From Archaeoglobus fulgidus DSM 4304 (GTDB taxonomy: Archaea > Halobacteriota > Archaeoglobi > Archaeoglobales > Archaeoglobaceae): a stretch of DNA of 32,000 bases. The position numbers and the translations under genes are program-made. Under the pieces are notes generated by a model, which saw only the letters and a program-made list of their open reading frames with translations, had not been told where the DNA came from and did no database searches. Position 1 is the stretch's first letter. Each line of letters begins with the position of its first letter. Of this stretch, positions 10,808 to 31,444 are shown one piece after another. The stretch is from NCBI RefSeq assembly GCF_000008665.1, contig NC_000917.1:1350001-1382000 (forward strand), read 5' to 3'.

Positions 10808-11146
10808 TTAGTGGTGCAACTCCTTCTCCTCTGCCCCGTTCAAAGCGAGCATTATGTTTGCCCTCAGAGTCATCTCGAAGTAAAGCTTGTCGGGCTCAAG
10901 GACGACGAACTTCTTCGGAATTGGTACGAGAAGTGTCTCATCGCAGCGGTAGCAGTGATTCCCGTTGGAGTCCACATAAATCTTCGGTGATTCGGGCTTA
11001 CTTCTCTTCACGCAAAGGTAAACCGACTTATCCTTGTTTTTCCTTACCGTTTGCATGATTTCCTCGATGGTATAGACCTTCATCAGGTTTTCCATGATAG
11101 TATCAGCAAGCTTCGAGTTGGTATCCGTCTCCTCAACAGCTTCCAT
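10808..11146 (-). CDS. Hypothetical protein
   Basis: 112 aa with no family recognised. The TATA atttatct (minus sense, 11172-11179) lies about 29 nt upstream of ATG 11146, which supports expression. The gene sits 30 nt upstream of asd. Confidence 0.5.
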   Translation of the reverse strand: MEAVEETDTNSKLADTIMENLMKVYTIEEIMQTVRKNKDKSVYLCVKRSKPESPKIYVDSNGNHCYRCDETLLVPIPKKFVVLEPDKLYFEMTLRANIMLALNGAEEKELHH

Positions 11147-11208
11147 CTGATGTGATTGTAAGCGAGGCTAAAGATAAATCTTCTGGTTGTTTGTGCATAG
11201 CTGAACAC

Positions 11209-12651
11209 TCACCAGACAGGCCACTTATCCTTCCCAAATTCCCTTTCCATGTAGTCTATCCACGCCTCCAAACCCGATATACCGTCTTTCGCAATTATAT
11301 CTGCCACCTCTCTCTTTAAAGGTGCTATTCTTATGAAATCAAGGATACCGTAGGCAAAGCTGCCGTGAACGAAGCTCCAGTAAATGGCAAATAGAATCAC
11401 CCCGATAGAAAGCAGAGCTGCGGTGAGAGGTTCATGCTGTGGTATCGAAGTCACGAACCTCGGCCACCAGTCCGGATCGTGGAAGAGGATGAAGTAATTC
11501 AGGGCCGTCAGGGGGCCAAAAATACCAATCCTTTTCCAGTTGAATTTTCCAACGGAAATGCCGTCAAGAGAACTGTCGAGAATTCCCGCCCTTGCAAGCT
11601 TTCTCCTTACCCTCATCATCGGGTAGAGAACTATTGGAGTTGACGAAAGGAAGGCTACGGTCATTACTGGAAGCACGAAGGCGTTTAACAGATTGACAAC
11701 ACTCTCATCCAGCTCCACCCAACCCAGCTCAACCAGATAGCCCGGAACAGCCAGAGCCCTGCTGAGCGTTACGAGCAGCATCACGGTCGCCATCGCCATC
11801 TTAATGTAGTACTGTCTCACGTAGGTTGTTCCAACAGCCCCAATCTGCACACCAATGAGAGACGTTGCAAGAATCAGCGTTGTCAGTCTCAAATCCACCG
11901 CTCCGAGTAAGTAAATCCACGTGAATGTTCCAGTTGAGCCCATCACAAAGGCTATACCCAGCTCAGTTCCACTGGCAACAGCACTCGAAGCGCCAATGAG
12001 GTAAATCATCGAAGGCACTCCAATAAATCCTCCAACAGCAATGGTTGCAGCAAGAAATCCCGTTCCAAAGCCGAGAGGGATGGTTAGCCACGCAGACTGC
12101 TCCCTCCCGACGATGTTGAACTTAATCACTGGTGGGATTCTGAACTTCTGCTCCAGCTTGGCTGCAAAGCGAGGTTCGAGGTCAGAAATTCCCATCCTCC
12201 TCGCTTTCACGACATCCCTTATTAGAACTGCCGCAACAGTTGGTAAAACAATTAGGAAAGCAACACTTACGTAAAGATTCGTTCCAGTAGGTCCTAAAAG
12301 CTCATAAATGTGCTTTTGAACCTGAATACCAACCTGAACGCCAAAAATAGCAGAGGTGGCCATTAAAAGAGCGAGCTTCGGGTCGAGCTGCCTCAGCTTA
12401 TACCTTCTGTAAGCACCAATCATCGCCTTGGGGAACTTGTGGCACATGTTGGATGCAACAGCAATGGGCCCGGGAGTGCCGATGGACATCATCCCCGGAG
12501 TTAAAACGAAAGCTCCTCCAGTTCCGATAAAACCGCTCAGCATCCCGCCAAAGAAGCCGAGAGCTAAGAGAAAGAGTGCCTCAAAGGGGCCAATATGTAT
12601 GAACATGTCGGGCGTCATCGCACTTCCGCCCTGAGCGAATGCACCACCCAT
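11209..12651 (-). CDS. TauE/SafE-family anion exporter with about 170-aa C-terminal membrane extension
   Basis: 480 aa. GFIGTGGAFVLTPGMM and AVGGFIGVPSMIYL are TauE-type half repeats. The TATA atttatca (12674-12681, minus sense) is centred 26.5 nt from ATG 12651. Confidence 0.75.
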   Translation of the reverse strand: MGGAFAQGGSAMTPDMFIHIGPFEALFLLALGFFGGMLSGFIGTGGAFVLTPGMMSIGTPGPIAVASNMCHKFPKAMIGAYRRYKLRQLDPKLALLMATSAIFGVQVGIQVQKHIYELLGPTGTNLYVSVAFLIVLPTVAAVLIRDVVKARRMGISDLEPRFAAKLEQKFRIPPVIKFNIVGREQSAWLTIPLGFGTGFLAATIAVGGFIGVPSMIYLIGASSAVASGTELGIAFVMGSTGTFTWIYLLGAVDLRLTTLILATSLIGVQIGAVGTTYVRQYYIKMAMATVMLLVTLSRALAVPGYLVELGWVELDESVVNLLNAFVLPVMTVAFLSSTPIVLYPMMRVRRKLARAGILDSSLDGISVGKFNWKRIGIFGPLTALNYFILFHDPDWWPRFVTSIPQHEPLTAALLSIGVILFAIYWSFVHGSFAYGILDFIRIAPLKREVADIIAKDGISGLEAWIDYMEREFGKDKWPVW

Positions 12652-25422: not shown

Positions 25423-27720
25423 ATGACCGTTCGCAGTCTTCTTGAAGAGGTTTCAAAGGCGGCGGAAATCGCTGCCAGCAATCGACACAGGTTTATGGTC
25501 ATTCTATGCTCAAAGGAGCTCAACGACAGGGTTGTTAAAATAGCCAAGAGGATTTACAAAAAGCACAGAAAAAGGATGAACGAGGACAACCTCCTCATTG
25601 CGGGGAGGAGCGATTTTCTTGATATCACCCGAAAGTACTTTGAGGGGGAGTTTCTGCACTACAAGGACTCGCCGAAGGTGCTTGGCCAGACCTACTCCTC
25701 CCTTTTGATAGACTTCACCGAAGGTTTTCATCCCAACGATTTGGGAATAATCGTTGAGACGATCAAGGAGGGTGGAATAATCATAGCCTTCTCCCCGCCC
25801 ATCGAGCAGTGGGAGAATCTGAAGAGCAGGTGGCACGAGGAGCTTGTTTCCGAGCCCTACACAGTTGAGGACGTAACAGGGAGGTTTTTTGCGAGGTTCA
25901 TGAGGAGGACGCTTCAGGCGGAGGGCATAATTATCTTCGATGCGGACAGAAGAAAAATCATCAAGCACTACGAGTTTGAGCCGAAGGAAATTTCGAGAGA
26001 GGAAATCGTAATTCCCGAAGACATTGAAATCAAGAGGAAGCTATACAAGCTCTGCGCAACTCAGGACCAGGTCAGAGTTCTGCAGGTCTTCGAGCGATTT
26101 TTTGACAGAAAGAGGGAGAGGAAAGCTGTTGTGATTACGGCCGACAGAGGGAGGGGAAAGACGGCCATTTTGGGCATCGCCACACCCTACATAATTTCAA
26201 GGATGGAGAGGCTGCTCAAGAGGCCTGTGAGGATTATGGTTGTGGCTCCAACCCCTCAGGCGGTACAGACCTACTTCAGATTTCTCCTCAAGGCGATGGT
26301 AAGGCAGGGGATGACGAAGTACTTCGCAAAGGAGACAAACGGCCTGATAACGGTTGTCAACAGCAAGTACGCAAGGGTTGAGTACGTTGTGCCGAGAAGG
26401 GCGATGCTGGAGAAAGACACTGCGGATGTAATCATAGTCGATGAGGCTGCAGGGATTGACGTGCCTGTGTTGCTTAAAATCACTGAAGGGGTCAGGTACA
26501 TGATTTTCTCCACGACAATTCACGGTTACGAGGGCACGGGAAGGGGATTTGCCATCAGGTTTTTGAAAAGGCTTGAGAGTGACGAGACGGTTGAAATCGA
26601 AAGAATCCACATGGAGGAGCCAATCAGGTACGGTAAGGGAGATCCGATAGAGAAGTGGCTTTACGATGTGCTACTACTTGACGCTCAGCCGGCAGAGCTC
26701 GATGATGAGGATGTCGAAGCTATAAAGCAGGGGAAGCTTGAGTTCAGGGAGGTGGACAAGGATGCGCTGGTGAACGATGAGAAGCTCCTGAGAGAGTTTT
26801 TCGGAATCTACGTGCTCGCTCACTACCGAAACCGTCCTTCAGATTTGGCAATACTCCTCGACATGCCGAACCACCTTCCATTCATTGTTACGGTGAACGG
26901 CAAACCCGTTTGCTCCCTTCACATCGCAGTTGAAGGGAACCTCGACGATGAAACAATCGAGAAAATAAAAGAAGGCTACAAGCCGAAAGGACAGATAATC
27001 CCCGACCTGATGCTGAAGCACTACTGGGACTTCGAGTTTCCGAAACTTGTAGGCGCGAGGGTGGTGAGGATAGCAACCCACCCGTCTGTTATGGATATGG
27101 GGATCGGGAGCTTTGCCCTGGCGAAGATAGTTGAGTGGGCCTACGGCAGAGACATGGACTGGGTTGGTTCGGGATTCGGAGTTTCACCGGAGCTTCTCCG
27201 CTTCTGGGCTAAGAACCACTTTACACCCGTGCACATAACACCTCAGAGGAACGAGGTTAGCGGAGAGCACACCTTAATCGTTCTAAGGGCTTTGAAGTAC
27301 GATGTAGAGGATGTTGTTGAGAAGCTCAATTCGGAGTTCACGAGAAGGCTGATTGAATACCTGGCGGACGAGCTTTCAGATTTGGAGACCGAGACGGCGG
27401 TTCTTCTGCTCAGGTCTCTTAGAAGGAGCTTTGAAATTCCTTCCCCCAGATTCGGAAAGGTGGAAAGGAGGAGAATGAGCAAGTACTTCCAGGGCATGAG
27501 CCTTTACGAGTACGTTTCGGACATAATAAGGCCGCTCGTAAGATATTACTACTCCAGAACTGACAGAGACGAGCTTGAGGAGGTTGAGGAAGAGGTTTTG
27601 ATTGGAAAGTGTCTGCAGCTAAAGCACTGGTCCGAGCTGCCGGGGGAGGGGTATAAGAAGTACAGAACACTCCTGAATGCCGTGAAAAAAGTCTGGAGAT
27701 GGTACTATGGAGAGGATTAA
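25423..27720 (+). CDS. tmcA: tRNA/RNA cytidine N4-acetyltransferase (TmcA/Kre33/NAT10 homologue)
   Basis: 765 aa. It has a DUF1726-like N-terminus, a helicase P-loop (TADRGRGKTA), a Walker B motif (VIIVDEAAGI), a GNAT domain (RIATHPSVMDMGIGSFAL) and a tRNA-binding tail. The TATA at 25393-25400 is centred 26.5 nt from the ATG. Confidence 0.88.
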   Translation: MTVRSLLEEVSKAAEIAASNRHRFMVILCSKELNDRVVKIAKRIYKKHRKRMNEDNLLIAGRSDFLDITRKYFEGEFLHYKDSPKVLGQTYSSLLIDFTEGFHPNDLGIIVETIKEGGIIIAFSPPIEQWENLKSRWHEELVSEPYTVEDVTGRFFARFMRRTLQAEGIIIFDADRRKIIKHYEFEPKEISREEIVIPEDIEIKRKLYKLCATQDQVRVLQVFERFFDRKRERKAVVITADRGRGKTAILGIATPYIISRMERLLKRPVRIMVVAPTPQAVQTYFRFLLKAMVRQGMTKYFAKETNGLITVVNSKYARVEYVVPRRAMLEKDTADVIIVDEAAGIDVPVLLKITEGVRYMIFSTTIHGYEGTGRGFAIRFLKRLESDETVEIERIHMEEPIRYGKGDPIEKWLYDVLLLDAQPAELDDEDVEAIKQGKLEFREVDKDALVNDEKLLREFFGIYVLAHYRNRPSDLAILLDMPNHLPFIVTVNGKPVCSLHIAVEGNLDDETIEKIKEGYKPKGQIIPDLMLKHYWDFEFPKLVGARVVRIATHPSVMDMGIGSFALAKIVEWAYGRDMDWVGSGFGVSPELLRFWAKNHFTPVHITPQRNEVSGEHTLIVLRALKYDVEDVVEKLNSEFTRRLIEYLADELSDLETETAVLLLRSLRRSFEIPSPRFGKVERRRMSKYFQGMSLYEYVSDIIRPLVRYYYSRTDRDELEEVEEEVLIGKCLQLKHWSELPGEGYKKYRTLLNAVKKVWRWYYGED

Positions 27721-28018
27721 CTTTGATTCGGAGTTTGTTGAAAGAATAATCAACGGAGAGAAGATTACCACCGTAAGGAGGGGGATAAAGAGCTATCCGG
27801 TCGGAAGAATTGTCGAACTCACAGCAAACGGGGAGAGGTTCGCTCTGGCGAAGGTGAAAAAGGTGGTAGTGAAGAGGGTGAGGGAACTAACTGATGAGGA
27901 TGCCATAAGGGACGGTTTCAAAAGCCGAGAAGAGCTGATTTCTGCGTTAAAAAGAATATATGGGGACATAAGGGATGATGAGTTCGTAACCGTCGTTCAT
28001 TTCGAGGTCGTGAAATAA
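27707..28018 (+). CDS. ASCH-domain protein
   Basis: 103 aa. The ATG lies inside the last 14 nt of tmcA. FVERIINGEKITTVRRG matches the ASCH motif G-x-K-x-x-T-x-R. DEDAIRDGF...LISALKRIYG is typical of the family. Confidence 0.8.
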   Translation: MERINFDSEFVERIINGEKITTVRRGIKSYPVGRIVELTANGERFALAKVKKVVVKRVRELTDEDAIRDGFKSREELISALKRIYGDIRDDEFVTVVHFEVVK

Positions 28019-28022
28019 ACAC

Positions 28023-28274
28023 TCATCTGAAAGCAAGGTAAAGGGCAACGGCCATCTCGATGAGCACAGCTACTGTCAAAATTGCCGTTTTTCTGGAAGA
28101 GAACGGGAGAATTAGAATCAAACCGATGGCGGGAATGAGTGTAAGGAGGAAGACCAGCAAAGGCGAAAGAGATGTTCCAAAAAGCTTATCCAAGGCATAC
28201 GAGACAATCAAAGCTGCAAACACCGCGAAAAAGCTGTATTCGACAAATCTGGCAAACAGTCTGTCTTCCCTCAA
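28023..28274 (-). CDS. Small membrane protein (3 TM) coupled to TauE/SafE, possibly DUF1634-like
   Basis: 83 aa and hydrophobic. The start overlaps the TauE stop by 4 nt. The family call is only a weak recollection that TauE genes often carry such a partner. Confidence 0.5.
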   Translation of the reverse strand: MREDRLFARFVEYSFFAVFAALIVSYALDKLFGTSLSPLLVFLLTLIPAIGLILILPFSSRKTAILTVAVLIEMAVALYLAFR

Positions 28275-29128
28275 CCAAACACCCCCGTCAGCCCCTTATA
28301 GATGTTGGTTGATGCCGCTATGAGGAGGATGATTAGCACAACCTGCCTTATAACCGCGGGTCTAACTTTGAGAGCCAGTGATGCGCCAAGTTTCGAGCCT
28401 AACGCCATTCCAACCGTTGCGGGAACTGCAATATCCGGCAAAACAGCCCCCTTTGCAATGTAAACCCATCCTGCGATTGAGGTGTTGAGGAGAATTATCA
28501 GCATGCTTGTGGCAACTGCCACCCTTATTGGCAGCAGCATGACGAGATTCAAAACCGGAACGTTTGCCCACCCCGCCCCGAGACCGAACATTCCCGCGAT
28601 TAAACCGACGAAGGCGAACATAAGCAAGGCAACAGGGGTATTGGAGGCGTGGTAGCTTATTTCCTCCCCTAAACTCGGCTCAAAGCAAGCACCCCTCATT
28701 TCAAAAAACCTGCCAATTCTGTCCTCCTCCTTACTTTCGGGAAACTCCAGCCTCTCGGTTGTAAGCATTATCATCAGTATTACACCGAGAAGAATTCCGA
28801 GGAGCAGTGTAATGTAGTGTTTCCCCTCAGGGAACTCCCTTGAGATGTAAAGTCCCAGATAACCACCAGCAAAGGCCGTTAGATTGGAAACTAAAACGAG
28901 TGGAAGAACCATTCTGAGGTTGGTGAAACCCCTCATCATTACTGCTGGAGAGGAGACGAGGGCGCTGGTCAGGGCAACTATTACACCCCCTCCCCTTATG
29001 TAGTCAACATCGAACTCCGAGAAGGCTGTGAGCAGAGGTACGAACATCACCCCTCCACCCACACCTGAAAGGGGGGCGAGGATTCCTATTAAGAGGGAAA
29101 ACAGGAAGATAAAGACTGCCGAGTACAT
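28271..29128 (-). CDS. TauE/SafE-family sulfite/anion exporter
   Basis: 285 aa with 7-8 TM segments. PLSGVGGGVMFVPLL and GLGAGWANVPVLNLV are the paired TauE motifs. Confidence 0.8.
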   Translation of the reverse strand: MYSAVFIFLFSLLIGILAPLSGVGGGVMFVPLLTAFSEFDVDYIRGGGVIVALTSALVSSPAVMMRGFTNLRMVLPLVLVSNLTAFAGGYLGLYISREFPEGKHYITLLLGILLGVILMIMLTTERLEFPESKEEDRIGRFFEMRGACFEPSLGEEISYHASNTPVALLMFAFVGLIAGMFGLGAGWANVPVLNLVMLLPIRVAVATSMLIILLNTSIAGWVYIAKGAVLPDIAVPATVGMALGSKLGASLALKVRPAVIRQVVLIILLIAASTNIYKGLTGVFG

Positions 29129-29129
29129 G

Positions 29130-29567
29130 CTATCCCCTGCAAATCAGCAAGCTTGCCTTTGACTTTTTAAGCAGAACCTCGCACGGGTCTTTGCCGAAAA
29201 ACCCCCCGATTACCCTCTTCAGCAATCCACCCTTAAACCCCACAACGATCAAATCGGGCTTTATCTGCTTCTCCACAAGCAGCAATCTGTCCGCGTACTT
29301 TCCGAAAACAACGCTGACGTCAGAAACTTTCAGTCCGGCTTTTTCAAGTTGGTTCTTGAACCCCTCCAGCTTCTTCATCGATTGTGTCATCAAGCGGTGA
29401 TACGCTGCAAGCTCCTTCTCCTCGGGAACAAAAGGCGGGACCTCCATTTCCCTGATATAGAGAATGTAAACCTCCCCCCTCAATCCGTCCTCTGCCAGCT
29501 TTTTCAGCTTCTGGAAAGCAATCTCTCCCCTACCGGTGTCGTCGAGAACGAGAAGGATTCGCTCCAT
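29130..29567 (-). CDS. Universal stress protein (UspA) family
   Basis: 145 aa. MERILLVLDDTGRGEIAF, the LIVVGFKGG...GKDPCEVLLKKSKASLLIC layout and the length fit Usp. The ATP-binding G-x2-G-x9-G(S/T) motif looks degenerate. Confidence 0.7.
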   Translation of the reverse strand: MERILLVLDDTGRGEIAFQKLKKLAEDGLRGEVYILYIREMEVPPFVPEEKELAAYHRLMTQSMKKLEGFKNQLEKAGLKVSDVSVVFGKYADRLLLVEKQIKPDLIVVGFKGGLLKRVIGGFFGKDPCEVLLKKSKASLLICRG

Positions 29568-29575
29568 GTTCCCCC

Positions 29576-30892
29576 CTACTGCAATCCCTCTACGTATTTC
29601 ATAAGCTCTTCTTCCGATAACTTAACAAAGCGGTTGTACATCTCCCTTATCTTCTCAACTGGGCTTAGCTCAACCTGATAGAGGTTGATTACTCCAAGGA
29701 GGTCATCTTTTTCTATCTTTCCATCAAAAAGCGGTAAAAAGATTGCCTCATCGACCTTCCCCCCCTCTTCAACTCTCCAGGGCAAATCAGATACAAGGTC
29801 GATGAGCACTCCATCAGAGTGGCGCATGATCTCCATTGGATAGACGATCGTGTTTGCTGGAATTTTTATTTTCTTTATTTTAACTCTAACTGGCTTGTTT
29901 TTAGTAAGCTCCTTGTCCTCTGCTGCGACGACAACTTCCCACCTCGCTACAGGGCTCCTATGGTAGCCAAAAGGAGGGAGATGCACCTTCTTTCTAATGA
30001 TTTTTTCTTCCTTCCTGTAAACCAGGGTAAAATCCTGAGGCTCTTTGGTTGCAATCAGCGGCTCGAGTTTCTTTAAACCAACGTAGTAAACATTGATAAC
30101 ACCCAGTAAATCCCCCCTCTTTATTTCCCCATCATCAACAGCAAGAAATACAGCCTGCTCAATATTCTTTGGCTCCTCAACTCTTCTCGGTTTTCCAAGC
30201 TGCACAACGTCAACTACAACTCCGTAGGGATTTCTGGATATGGAAAGCGGAACGACCACAGTGTTTGGGGGTAACTCAACGTTTCTGATTTTCACTCTCA
30301 AAACATCCCCAGCCCTCACCCCAACATCTTCGTCCGCAACCAGGGGCTCCCAAACTCCCACATGTGTTCTTGTGTACCCAAAAACTTTCGTAGAAATTTT
30401 CTCCCTGTAAATGTTTCCGTCGTCCCTCCACGTAATGTTTGCCTCAACAATCTCTTCCCTCAGCTCAACCTTGGTCGGTTTGAGGTTAAAGAGCCTCGAA
30501 ATTAGGCCCGTTTTTATGAAAAACACCTTCAGAACACCGACTATATCACCCTCCCTTACCACACCATCATCAACAGGGAGAAAAACCACTCTCTGGATGC
30601 ACTTTTCGTCCTCAACCCTCGTCGGTATTCCGCATTCGACGACATCCAGCACGGTGCCAAGAGCGTGTCTCATAATGTGCAGGGGGCCGACCATAGTCCC
30701 CCCGGGAATTGTGAAGGGTCTTACCTCAATAATCTCGGGCTCCCCTTTTTTCACCTCGACGTCATCCATCGCGATCAGCGTCTTCCACTGAGTCAAAGGA
30801 ATGATTCTGTAGCCAAAAGGCTTAAGCTCAACCTTGAGGCTACCCCTCTCACCCCCAACCTCGTCTGTCCAGTACTTCATCTTTACGGCCAT
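29576..30892 (-). CDS. 438-aa soluble protein built from three tandem homologous modules, unknown family
   Basis: An FGY...W...V.....IP..T.V.P..I.R...GV..D.V......RVEE......A.FL...DG.I...D..GV.N.Y pattern recurs three times (FGY at aa 26, 171, 308). A GGTGG SD precedes the ATG, and a TATA-rich box lies at about 30931-30950. Confidence 0.8.
   Translation of the reverse strand: MAVKMKYWTDEVGGERGSLKVELKPFGYRIIPLTQWKTLIAMDDVEVKKGEPEIIEVRPFTIPGGTMVGPLHIMRHALGTVLDVVECGIPTRVEDEKCIQRVVFLPVDDGVVREGDIVGVLKVFFIKTGLISRLFNLKPTKVELREEIVEANITWRDDGNIYREKISTKVFGYTRTHVGVWEPLVADEDVGVRAGDVLRVKIRNVELPPNTVVVPLSISRNPYGVVVDVVQLGKPRRVEEPKNIEQAVFLAVDDGEIKRGDLLGVINVYYVGLKKLEPLIATKEPQDFTLVYRKEEKIIRKKVHLPPFGYHRSPVARWEVVVAAEDKELTKNKPVRVKIKKIKIPANTIVYPMEIMRHSDGVLIDLVSDLPWRVEEGGKVDEAIFLPLFDGKIEKDDLLGVINLYQVELSPVEKIREMYNRFVKLSEEELMKYVEGLQ
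29669..30031 (-). repeat. Intragenic protein repeat 3 (aa 288-408)
   Basis: FTLVYRKE...PFGYHRSPVARW...IPANTIVYPMEIMRHSDGVLIDLV...RVEEGGKVDEAIFLPLFDGKIEKDDLLGVINLYQV. Confidence 0.7.
30077..30442 (-). repeat. Intragenic protein repeat 2 (aa 151-272)
   Basis: ANITWRDD...VFGYTRTHVGVW...LPPNTVVVPLSISRNPYGVVVDVV...RVEEPKNIEQAVFLAVDDGEIKRGDLLGVINVYYV. Confidence 0.7.
30512..30877 (-). repeat. Intragenic protein repeat 1 (aa 6-127)
   Basis: KYWTDE...PFGYRIIPLTQW...IPGGTMVGPLHIMRHALGTVLDVV...RVEDEKCIQRVVFLPVDDGVVREGDIVGVLKVFFI. Confidence 0.7.
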
Positions 30893-31024
30893 ACAACCAC
30901 CTTTTCAACAATAGATTATGTTAATTTTTTGTTATATATAAATATTTCCTCAACGGAGCGGTACTAACGGGCAAGTGCGTTCACATAATTTCGCAAAGTT
31001 TTTATCTCACTTTTTAACACTTTA

Positions 31025-31444
31025 TCAAAGAAAAACTACGAGCCTCGAAATGAGGTCGAGTGAAACGAAAAGCAGTCCTATCTCTACGCCGAAAACAGAC
31101 ACGGCTACTGGGGCAAGGAAAAGTAGGGCTGCCCTGAAACCTCTTGGAAGCATAGAAAGTGCCGCTGAGCAAGCCGTTTCCCTAAAGCTCAGTTTTCCTG
31201 CCCTGTACATCGCAGATAGTGACGAAATCCCAACTATCGGGTGAATTAAGAATGACGCTATGGCAAATCCGCTTTTCAGCTTTGAGAACCTTATGAGGTT
31301 GTTTATGAACTCACCAACCCTGCTGAACTGGGGGAGGGAAAAGGGGGCGTTTGATAGTATTAGGCTGACAAGCATTATCGGAACTACCTTTGACATTAGC
31401 GTTAGTGTTTGCAGCAGGGCGTAGTTCACGTCCACCCTCCCCAA
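31025..31444 (-). CDS. Membrane protein, possibly nucleoside-recognition (Gate) domain type
   Basis: About 139 aa with 4 hydrophobic segments. AIASFLIHPIVGISSLSAMYRAGKLSFRE recalls Gate-domain proteins. The start is ambiguous: TTG 31444, GTG 31435 or ATG 31396. Confidence 0.4.
   Translation of the reverse strand: MGRVDVNYALLQTLTLMSKVVPIMLVSLILSNAPFSLPQFSRVGEFINNLIRFSKLKSGFAIASFLIHPIVGISSLSAMYRAGKLSFRETACSAALSMLPRGFRAALLFLAPVAVSVFGVEIGLLFVSLDLISRLVVFL

Follow-up and report, generated by a model that had tools for sequence, protein, structure and literature searches.

In a 32,000-nucleotide (nt) stretch of the Archaeoglobus fulgidus DSM 4304 genome (NC_000917.1, positions 1,350,001 to 1,382,000; this whole stretch is referred to as the window, with positions counted from its first letter), four closely packed open reading frames (ORFs) lie on the minus strand between positions 28023 and 30892. 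The first of these encodes a protein of 438 amino acids (aa) with three repeated modules, and those that follow code for a Usp-family protein, a TauE/SafE permease and a small membrane protein. The locus raises the question of what a protein of such repetitive build does in this company.

The 438-aa protein adds a new member to DUF22 (PF01629), a catalogued, uncharacterised family of archaeal proteins. With regard to its role, we tentatively favour, at chances a little short of even, a single-chain pseudo-trimer of dUTPase-like topology, whose interface sites would bind a ligand non-catalytically and which, jointly with Usp, would dock on the TauE permease and regulate it. The analysis provides DUF22 with a confident all-beta model having the trimeric dUTPases as nearest structural relatives, with a natural series running from single-module to covalently triplicated forms, and with a recurrent partner, Usp, to which it is sometimes fused. 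Its recurrent membrane neighbours are TSUP permeases and ATP synthase subunit D. The cluster makes for a moderate to good experimental lead, and a dedicated cytoplasmic partner would offer a handle on the TSUP/TauE permeases of sulfate reducers.

The DUF22 protein and its three modules

The gene product at the head of the cluster (29576-30892, minus strand), defined by its ORF, its Pfam match and its AlphaFold2 model, matches DUF22 with an E-value of 9.5e-123 and 401.9 bits against a cut-off of 25. The match falls into three stretches, the best of which (aa 150-255) spans positions 1-106 of the 106 in the Pfam model; NCBIfam has no model for the protein. A preliminary description of the locus, made from its sequence, had assigned the protein to an unrecognised family, and this has to be corrected, as public orthologues with 58-72% identity already carry the label "DUF22 domain-containing protein". 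DUF22 is among the oldest of the Pfam domains of unknown function.

All three modules are delimited by alignments, combined for module 1 (aa 1-128, 30509-30892) with strands E2-E128 of the structural model, for module 2 (aa 147-272, 30077-30454) with the Pfam stretch and a single-module model, and for module 3 (aa 286-410, 29663-30037) with strands E286-E410. They are followed by a C-terminal tail (aa 412-437, 29582-29659) of two helices, H412-423 and H427-437, and all of these features are on the minus strand. The modules, each of about 125 aa, are 29-38% identical to one another and have in common the columns FGY, W, P..T.V.P..I.R...G...D.V, RVE, F.L..DG and D..GV. When the protein is compared with its own gene by tblastn, an internal self-match with an E-value of 2.5e-20 is obtained, which together with the three DUF22 stretches places the repeat far beyond chance.

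Codon-aligned DNA identity between the modules is 46-51% and no long DNA repeats were found between them, suggesting that the triplication is old. In an alignment of 54 homologues, modules in the same position are 40-49% identical as against 35-37% across positions, and the triplication should thus be older than the radiation of the three-module family. The preliminary description had recognised both the three homologous modules, with their conserved columns, and an old triplication that has been maintained, and on both points it is borne out.

The alignments show the polar motifs A-x-E-D, R-H, V-E-E and G-D-L-L-G to be conserved across the modules, and the residues of A-x-E-D, R-H, V-E-E and G-D are also present in single-module relatives. 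Each module has features of its own, however. Module 1 has a pair of cysteines, C87 and C98 (aa 87-98, 30599-30634), which brackets the conserved RVE(D/E) loop (VECGIPxRVE[DE]EKC) and is conserved in 29 of the 54 homologues. Module 2 reads SRN where modules 1 and 3 read MRH, the histidine of the R-H motif being systematically lost, and module 3 of many relatives carries C-DC..PW[RK]VEEGG, which is missing from module 3 of the window protein. On these differences the three sites are not equivalent, an asymmetry that would fit a specialised pseudo-heterotrimer.

A search with the 438-aa protein, covering 5.8 billion proteins, identified 111 homologues, nearly all of 390-445 aa and all with PF01629, the closest full-length relative having 81% identity. 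Those with a named source are all from Archaeoglobus, Archaeoglobaceae or Archaeoglobales. A profile of the module, searched against 1.84 billion representative proteins, found 137 proteins, of which 13 possess three stretches, a few possess two and most are single-module proteins of 120-166 aa. The named sources in this case are MSBL1, Archaeoglobaceae/Archaeoglobales, Candidatus Nezhaarchaeales, Methanothrix, Candidatus Methanoperedens and Thermoprotei. All source names of DUF22 homologues are archaeal, the number of domain copies per protein ranging from one to three, and three-module forms were seen in Archaeoglobales only. The preliminary description had left it as a question whether single-module homologues exist; they do so in other archaea, and from this distribution the three-module form seems to join covalently what is made elsewhere as separate chains that would have to oligomerise.

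Predicted structure and its resemblance to dUTPases

The AlphaFold2 model of the full chain, based on the 54-sequence alignment, shows three all-beta modules and two C-terminal helices, with a predicted local distance difference test (pLDDT) score of 90.3 and a predicted template modelling (pTM) score of 0.90. The helical tail is of lower confidence (pLDDT 61-87 in the last blocks). Module 2 modelled singly from 57 module sequences is likewise all-beta (pLDDT 92.7). A pTM of 0.90 for a chain of three domains suggests a fixed mutual arrangement, and the modules probably pack as one rigid single-chain pseudo-trimer. The pseudo-trimer envisaged in the preliminary description thus gains in probability, to which the single-module relatives and the fold matches to obligate homotrimers also contribute.

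The full three-module model was uninformative in Foldseek, with nothing below an E-value of 0.04. With the single module, the top 14 matches in the PDB are homotrimeric dUTPases such as YosS and YncF of Bacillus subtilis, with Mycobacterium tuberculosis Dut lower-ranked; these 14 have probabilities of 0.87-0.99, template modelling (TM) scores of 0.37-0.44, identities of 19-23% and E-values of 0.018-0.14. In the BFVD library, dUTPases and dUTPase-derived viral proteins again rank top. The DUF22 module, all-beta and of about 125 residues, is predicted to resemble a dUTPase subunit at the level of the fold only. A whole-protein sequence search of solved structures gave chance-level matches only (E-value at least 0.38), and the family has no structure solved to date.

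A different fold had been suggested by the module end, which the preliminary description compared with the hairpin of lipoyl-like domains. Were the modules barrel-sandwich-hybrid (biotinyl/lipoyl-like) domains, they would have a swinging-arm or hairpin function, and the V-D-D-G-x-I-x-x-G-D-L-L-G-V hairpin is indeed superficially like those of the hybrid motif. However, the 50 best Foldseek matches in the PDB and the 50 best in BFVD include no biotinyl, lipoyl, HlyD or EIIA-type domain, nor is there a Pfam match to such domains or a conserved modifiable lysine at the hairpin tip, and the comparison is very improbable.

The nature of the best fold matches, enzymes with active sites at subunit interfaces, brings up the possibility that DUF22 is itself an enzyme. 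It could then have diverged within the dUTPase/dCTP-deaminase superfamily, or it could be a hydrolase of a new kind that acts at the module interfaces through the conserved Glu, Asp and Arg-His residues. Its substrate would be a nucleotide or whatever TauE transports, and it would be tied to Usp and TauE through metabolism, not as their regulator. That every module and the single-module relatives have kept the polar motifs agrees with this, and an hhalign comparison of DUF22 module profiles with an alignment of Escherichia coli Dut and ten phage dUTPases has one register that places these motifs at dUTPase motifs I-IV. A single-chain three-domain dUTPase is also known, from Drosophila virilis (PMC12524310), in which three copies of an otherwise single-domain protein are linked as in the window protein; its domains are about 88% identical to each other, as against 29-38% for the DUF22 modules.

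Nevertheless, no sequence-level match with dUTPase families was obtained, the Pfam scan giving no dUTPase match to the 438-aa protein at an E-value of 1 or less. By direct reading, no glycine-rich motif V (RG..GFGS-type) occurs after any module or elsewhere in the protein, so that no module has such an arm behind it, and the dUTPase motifs I-V, including the catalytic aspartate of motif III, are not recognisable. From the lack of these catalytic motifs we infer a ligand-binding or signalling protein that is not a dUTPase. In addition, module 2 systematically lacks the histidine of the R-H motif, and the genomic partners are Usp and a permease and not genes of nucleotide metabolism. Across the family these partners are diverse (TSUP, an IT-superfamily transporter, ATP synthase subunit D and housekeeping genes), a poor fit to a single substrate. 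An enzymatic role is accordingly regarded as unlikely.

Genomic partners and a possible role in transport control

Turning to the partners of DUF22 in the window, the Usp-family gene (145 aa, 29130-29567, minus strand) starts 8 nt past the DUF22 stop. Its product matches Pfam Usp with an E-value of 4.1e-14 and 53.8 bits against a cut-off of 24, over positions 3-141 of the 141-position model. The TauE/SafE (TSUP) permease gene (285 aa, 28271-29128, minus strand) lies 1 nt past Usp; its product matches Pfam TauE with an E-value of 5.9e-39 and 134.6 bits against a cut-off of 32.6 (model positions 1-234 of 237) and is 75% identical to the TauE of L006, an orthologous Archaeoglobus locus. The small membrane protein gene (83 aa, 28023-28274, minus strand) overlaps the TauE stop by 4 nt, and direct reading of its product reveals three hydrophobic stretches. 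The four ORFs, their coordinates and spacing, the Usp and TauE assignments and the three membrane-spanning stretches of the small protein all agree with the preliminary description.

The 83-aa protein has no direct Pfam match. Proteins of its type are kept after TauE in L001 and L006-L008, and an iterated local hidden Markov model (HMM) connects it with TauE-adjacent proteins of 135-138 aa. It aligns with both ends of the 138-aa forms, a central loop of about 55 aa being missing. The longer TauE-adjacent proteins (about 135-150 aa) give weak DUF1634 matches (E-values 1.3e-5 to 0.005) and carry the precomputed labels AF1633/AF_1016/DUF1634. By these alignments, the 83-aa protein appears to be a loop-deleted version of the small membrane proteins of about 135-150 aa that follow TauE elsewhere. 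Since such proteins recur after TauE, TauE and the small protein form a conserved pair, shortened in the window. The same pairing of permease and small protein is seen across related loci for TSUP (TC 2.A.102) permeases with DUF1634-type partners, from which the window's small protein differs in its length of 83 aa and the missing loop.

TSUP/TauE permeases are abundant in sulfate reducers, with their substrates and regulation not established, and the A. fulgidus genome has about 11 TSUP genes (PMC5840216). One TSUP homologue of A. fulgidus has merely been proposed as a sulfite importer (PMC3949148). A literature search for a TSUP structure returned nothing relevant, and the A. fulgidus transcriptome supplements hold no usable entry.

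Linkage of these genes was followed in other genomes. A single-sequence scan of genome contigs gave five loci and a metagenome scan with an alignment was far richer; DUF22, Usp, TauE and the small membrane protein were mapped on 66 loci with locally built HMMs. The clade of the window protein was delimited by neighbour-joining ordering, and linkage was counted over de-duplicated genes with enough flanking DNA. TauE lies within 3.5 kb of all 14 genes of this clade, in most cases at less than 500 bp, as against 1 of 13 genes elsewhere (Fisher p 7.5e-7, kinship not corrected for). The linkage of DUF22 with TauE and Usp, which the preliminary description had singled out for comparison between genomes, is kept in orthologues and in rearranged paralogous loci, and fusions of Usp with DUF22 reinforce it. 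It is a feature of one clade, however, and is missing from the majority of other three-module paralogues.

Within these limits the gene order varies. An orthologue of 72% identity stands in a locus with the order DUF22-Usp-TauE-85aa and the same tight spacing, and this locus also contains a further, divergent TauE accompanied by a small membrane protein. The order DUF22-Usp-TauE-mini, with mini denoting the small membrane protein, is present in the window, L001, L006-8 and L013, whereas L009, L015, L017, L018 and L043 have tandem DUF22 genes convergent with mini-TauE and with Usp beside them. A single-module DUF22 gene heads the order DUF22-Usp-TauE in L046 and follows a long TauE in L042 and L083, and L044 has the arrangement TauE-229aa-Usp-DUF22-UspUsp. 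The window itself contains a second TauE-family permease of the long type (480 aa, 11209-12651, minus strand); this type precedes a single-module DUF22 gene in L042 and L083/L084, but not in the window.

The sole recurrent fusion partner of DUF22 is Usp, found as Usp-DUF22 in proteins P0176 and P0181 and as Usp-Usp-DUF22 in P0179 from Candidatus Hydrothermarchaeota. The gene for P0179 lies 12 nt downstream of an anion transporter gene of the ArsB/CitMHS/Na_sulph_symp type, a family unrelated to TauE. In this locus (L076, 4703-9648), where the transporter is of the IT superfamily, an 820-aa protein with a spermine/spermidine-synthase domain is encoded 4 nt downstream of the fusion; in L003, L004, L016 and L022, too, the gene after the three-module DUF22 gene is one for spermidine synthase.

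With about 11 TSUP genes per A. fulgidus genome, chance adjacency should be rare, and we put its expected rate at no more than a few per cent of loci. It could still be argued that DUF22, Usp and TauE are adjacent through inherited synteny within one order, without any coupling, and that DUF22 has an unrelated cytoplasmic role. Every TauE-linked three-module locus is indeed from Archaeoglobales, TSUP genes are numerous in such genomes (PMC5840216) and most other DUF22 paralogues are unlinked. The linkage, however, has outlasted inversion, tandem duplication and a change in the subtype of TauE and recurs for single-module DUF22 genes, the spacing of 8 nt, 1 nt and a 4-nt overlap is operon-like, and fusions of Usp with DUF22 occur outside Archaeoglobales, one of them adjoining another anion transporter. 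Mere synteny is therefore judged improbable. That the linkage has withstood rearrangement, and that genes have fused, speaks for a functional connection between DUF22, Usp and the transporter.

A membrane neighbour of another kind is found among the short forms. In all three of the lineages sampled, a short DUF22 gene directly follows that of A-type ATP synthase subunit D, the proteins being 32-47% identical. These single-module DUF22 genes (123-131 aa; L080 4001-4387, L086 4001-4372, L087 4001-4396) start 3-10 nt past subunit D, and in L087 the AtpD-DUF22 pair stands alone, without atpA/atpB upstream. The adjacency points to a specific link of this short-DUF22 subfamily with the rotor-stalk subunit.

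This observation, including the lineage with no atpA/atpB ahead of the pair, speaks for a reading of DUF22 as an assembly factor, chaperone or structural cap for (pseudo-)three-fold membrane complexes, not as a sensing regulator, and so does the recurrent linkage with membrane proteins in Archaeoglobales. On the other hand, DUF22 is recurrently fused to Usp, whose family is in general linked to regulation and to the binding of nucleotides, the strictly conserved polar motifs of each module suggest a small-ligand site, and many paralogues have no membrane-protein neighbour, making a purely structural role decidedly unlikely.

The preliminary description had offered a regulatory subunit and a substrate-handling enzyme as alternatives, between which the choice is unsettled. 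The links of DUF22 with an unrelated anion transporter and with ATP synthase subunit D nonetheless disfavour a sulfite-specific enzyme. Such varied gene neighbours agree better with a module of general use, a partner or a regulator, that various membrane machines have taken up.

For the clade of the window, the regulatory proposal can be put as follows. DUF22 would be produced together with Usp, the TauE/SafE permease and the small DUF1634-like membrane subunit, and its three modules would pack as a single-chain pseudo-trimer with dUTPase-like topology. Sites at the module interfaces would bind a small ligand without hydrolysis of dUTP. The cytoplasmic DUF22-Usp unit would in this way sense a small molecule or the state of the cell, and by docking on the permease made up of TauE and the small subunit it would adjust the activity of the latter.

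Trimeric PII-type proteins are encoded with the transporters that they regulate, examples being GlnK-AmtB and SbtB-SbtA. The cluster resembles these systems in that a small cytoplasmic protein, here probably a (pseudo)trimer, shares an operon with a transporter, and the proposed ligand-sensing logic is alike. However, the PII fold is ferredoxin-like alpha/beta with a T-loop, whereas DUF22 is all-beta and without sequence similarity to it (no Pfam P-II match in the 438-aa protein), and the analogy is one of working principle only. Usp proteins are also regulators of adjacent transporters, as with TeaD and the TRAP transporter TeaABC, and as in TeaD-type systems the Usp gene of the window cluster is directly beside that of the transporter. 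The Usp partners of single-module DUF22 proteins, compared with these systems, keep the ATP-binding motif. The window cluster differs from them in that its Usp lacks this motif and in that a DUF22 partner is always present, sometimes fused to Usp.

This motif is unevenly distributed among the Usp partners. The window Usp lacks the canonical G-2x-G-9x-G(S/T) ATP-binding motif and has GFKG-x11-GKD instead, and the Usp proteins of other three-module loci are likewise without it. The motif is kept, as G.RG...LGS(V/I)(S/T), in the Usp partners in L045 and L046 and in both Usp domains of P0179. The reference for this comparison was MJ0577, after which the ATP-binding Usp subclass is typed, in what we take to be its sequence.

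Several observations weigh against the reading of DUF22 as a regulator of the TauE permease. Some 20 other three-module paralogues have neither a transporter nor Usp in their vicinity, the genes around them being unrelated housekeeping genes. One such context has Trm56 and adenylosuccinate lyase on one side and spermidine synthase and AcnX on the other, and further contexts are RNR-LonB-DUF22-TldD/PmbA, FmdE with a molybdopterin oxidoreductase, and aminotransferases. One of the Usp-DUF22 fusions has no transporter neighbour, and all TauE-linked loci come from one archaeal order, Archaeoglobales, the samples being non-independent. The absence of the ATP-binding motif from the Usp proteins of the window clade would leave the sensed signal in doubt. 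As to structure, the presumed pseudo-threefold symmetry is deduced only from the pTM and the oligomeric state of the matched fold. The likeness to dUTPases is sub-threshold in Foldseek (no match with an E-value below 0.001, TM about 0.4), a module-profile search of PDB sequences found nothing at an E-value of 10 or less and thus lends it no sequence support, and the hhalign comparison is non-significant, with probabilities of 0.4-4% and two registers. With no significant profile comparison and an unstable register, homology to dUTPases is not claimed. A literature search also found no paper that discusses DUF22 and no experiment on any DUF22 protein. Single-module DUF22 genes of other archaea are in yet other gene contexts.

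A wider version of the regulatory proposal is possible but doubtful. In it, DUF22 would be a class of archaeal signal proteins not described before, (pseudo)trimeric, with a dUTPase-like fold and functionally analogous to PII, often acting with Usp and binding a nucleotide or metabolite at inter-module sites. Such proteins would control TSUP permeases in Archaeoglobales, an IT-superfamily transporter in Hydrothermarchaeota and, via subunit D, the A-type ATP synthase in Methanothrix-like archaea, the window protein being a covalently triplicated, asymmetric version. If true, the membrane machines of archaea would have a trimeric regulator of general use, and the class of such regulators, today mainly PII-like, would gain a further family.

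A further possible partner was noted beside a DUF22 paralogue in the neighbourhood of FmdE and the molybdopterin oxidoreductase (L010, 7284-8000; L024, 11272-11988). This is a 238-aa protein whose gene follows that of DUF22 with a 4-nt overlap. It has no Pfam match and is only faintly similar to Usp (hhalign probability 25%); that it may be a degenerate Usp partner is a weak lead.

Upstream signals and flanking genes

By direct reading, a TATA-like box, TTTATATATA, is present at 30933-30942 on the minus strand, about 40-50 nt 5' of the DUF22 start codon, and a hexamer scan flagged the same position. A GGTGG motif resembling a Shine-Dalgarno sequence precedes the gene at 30897-30901. A scan for bacterial promoters and terminators gave counts not above those of shuffled sequence.

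Upstream of the DUF22 gene by 132 nt, and on the same strand, lies a hydrophobic ORF of 139 aa (31025-31444, minus strand) with no significant Pfam or NCBIfam match. It is absent from the equivalent position in L006 and is therefore probably outside the cluster. None of the four cluster proteins matched a PADLOC model at an E-value of 0.01 or less, and a reading of the cluster as a defence system was rejected on this ground.

At its downstream end the cluster abuts a convergent gene for a 103-aa ASCH-domain protein (27707-28018), whereas in L006 a gene for a Cbf5/TruB pseudouridine synthase (10883-11905) overlaps the end of the cluster by 4 nt, which indicates that the interior of the cluster is kept and its flanks are not. 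In the window, the ASCH-domain gene is overlapped by 14 nt by that of an RNA cytidine acetyltransferase of the TmcA/NAT10 type (25423-27720), and its product has a weak NCBIfam match to N4-acetylcytidine (ac4C) amidohydrolase (E-value 0.0014). The two could constitute a writer of ac4C with a possible eraser or reader.

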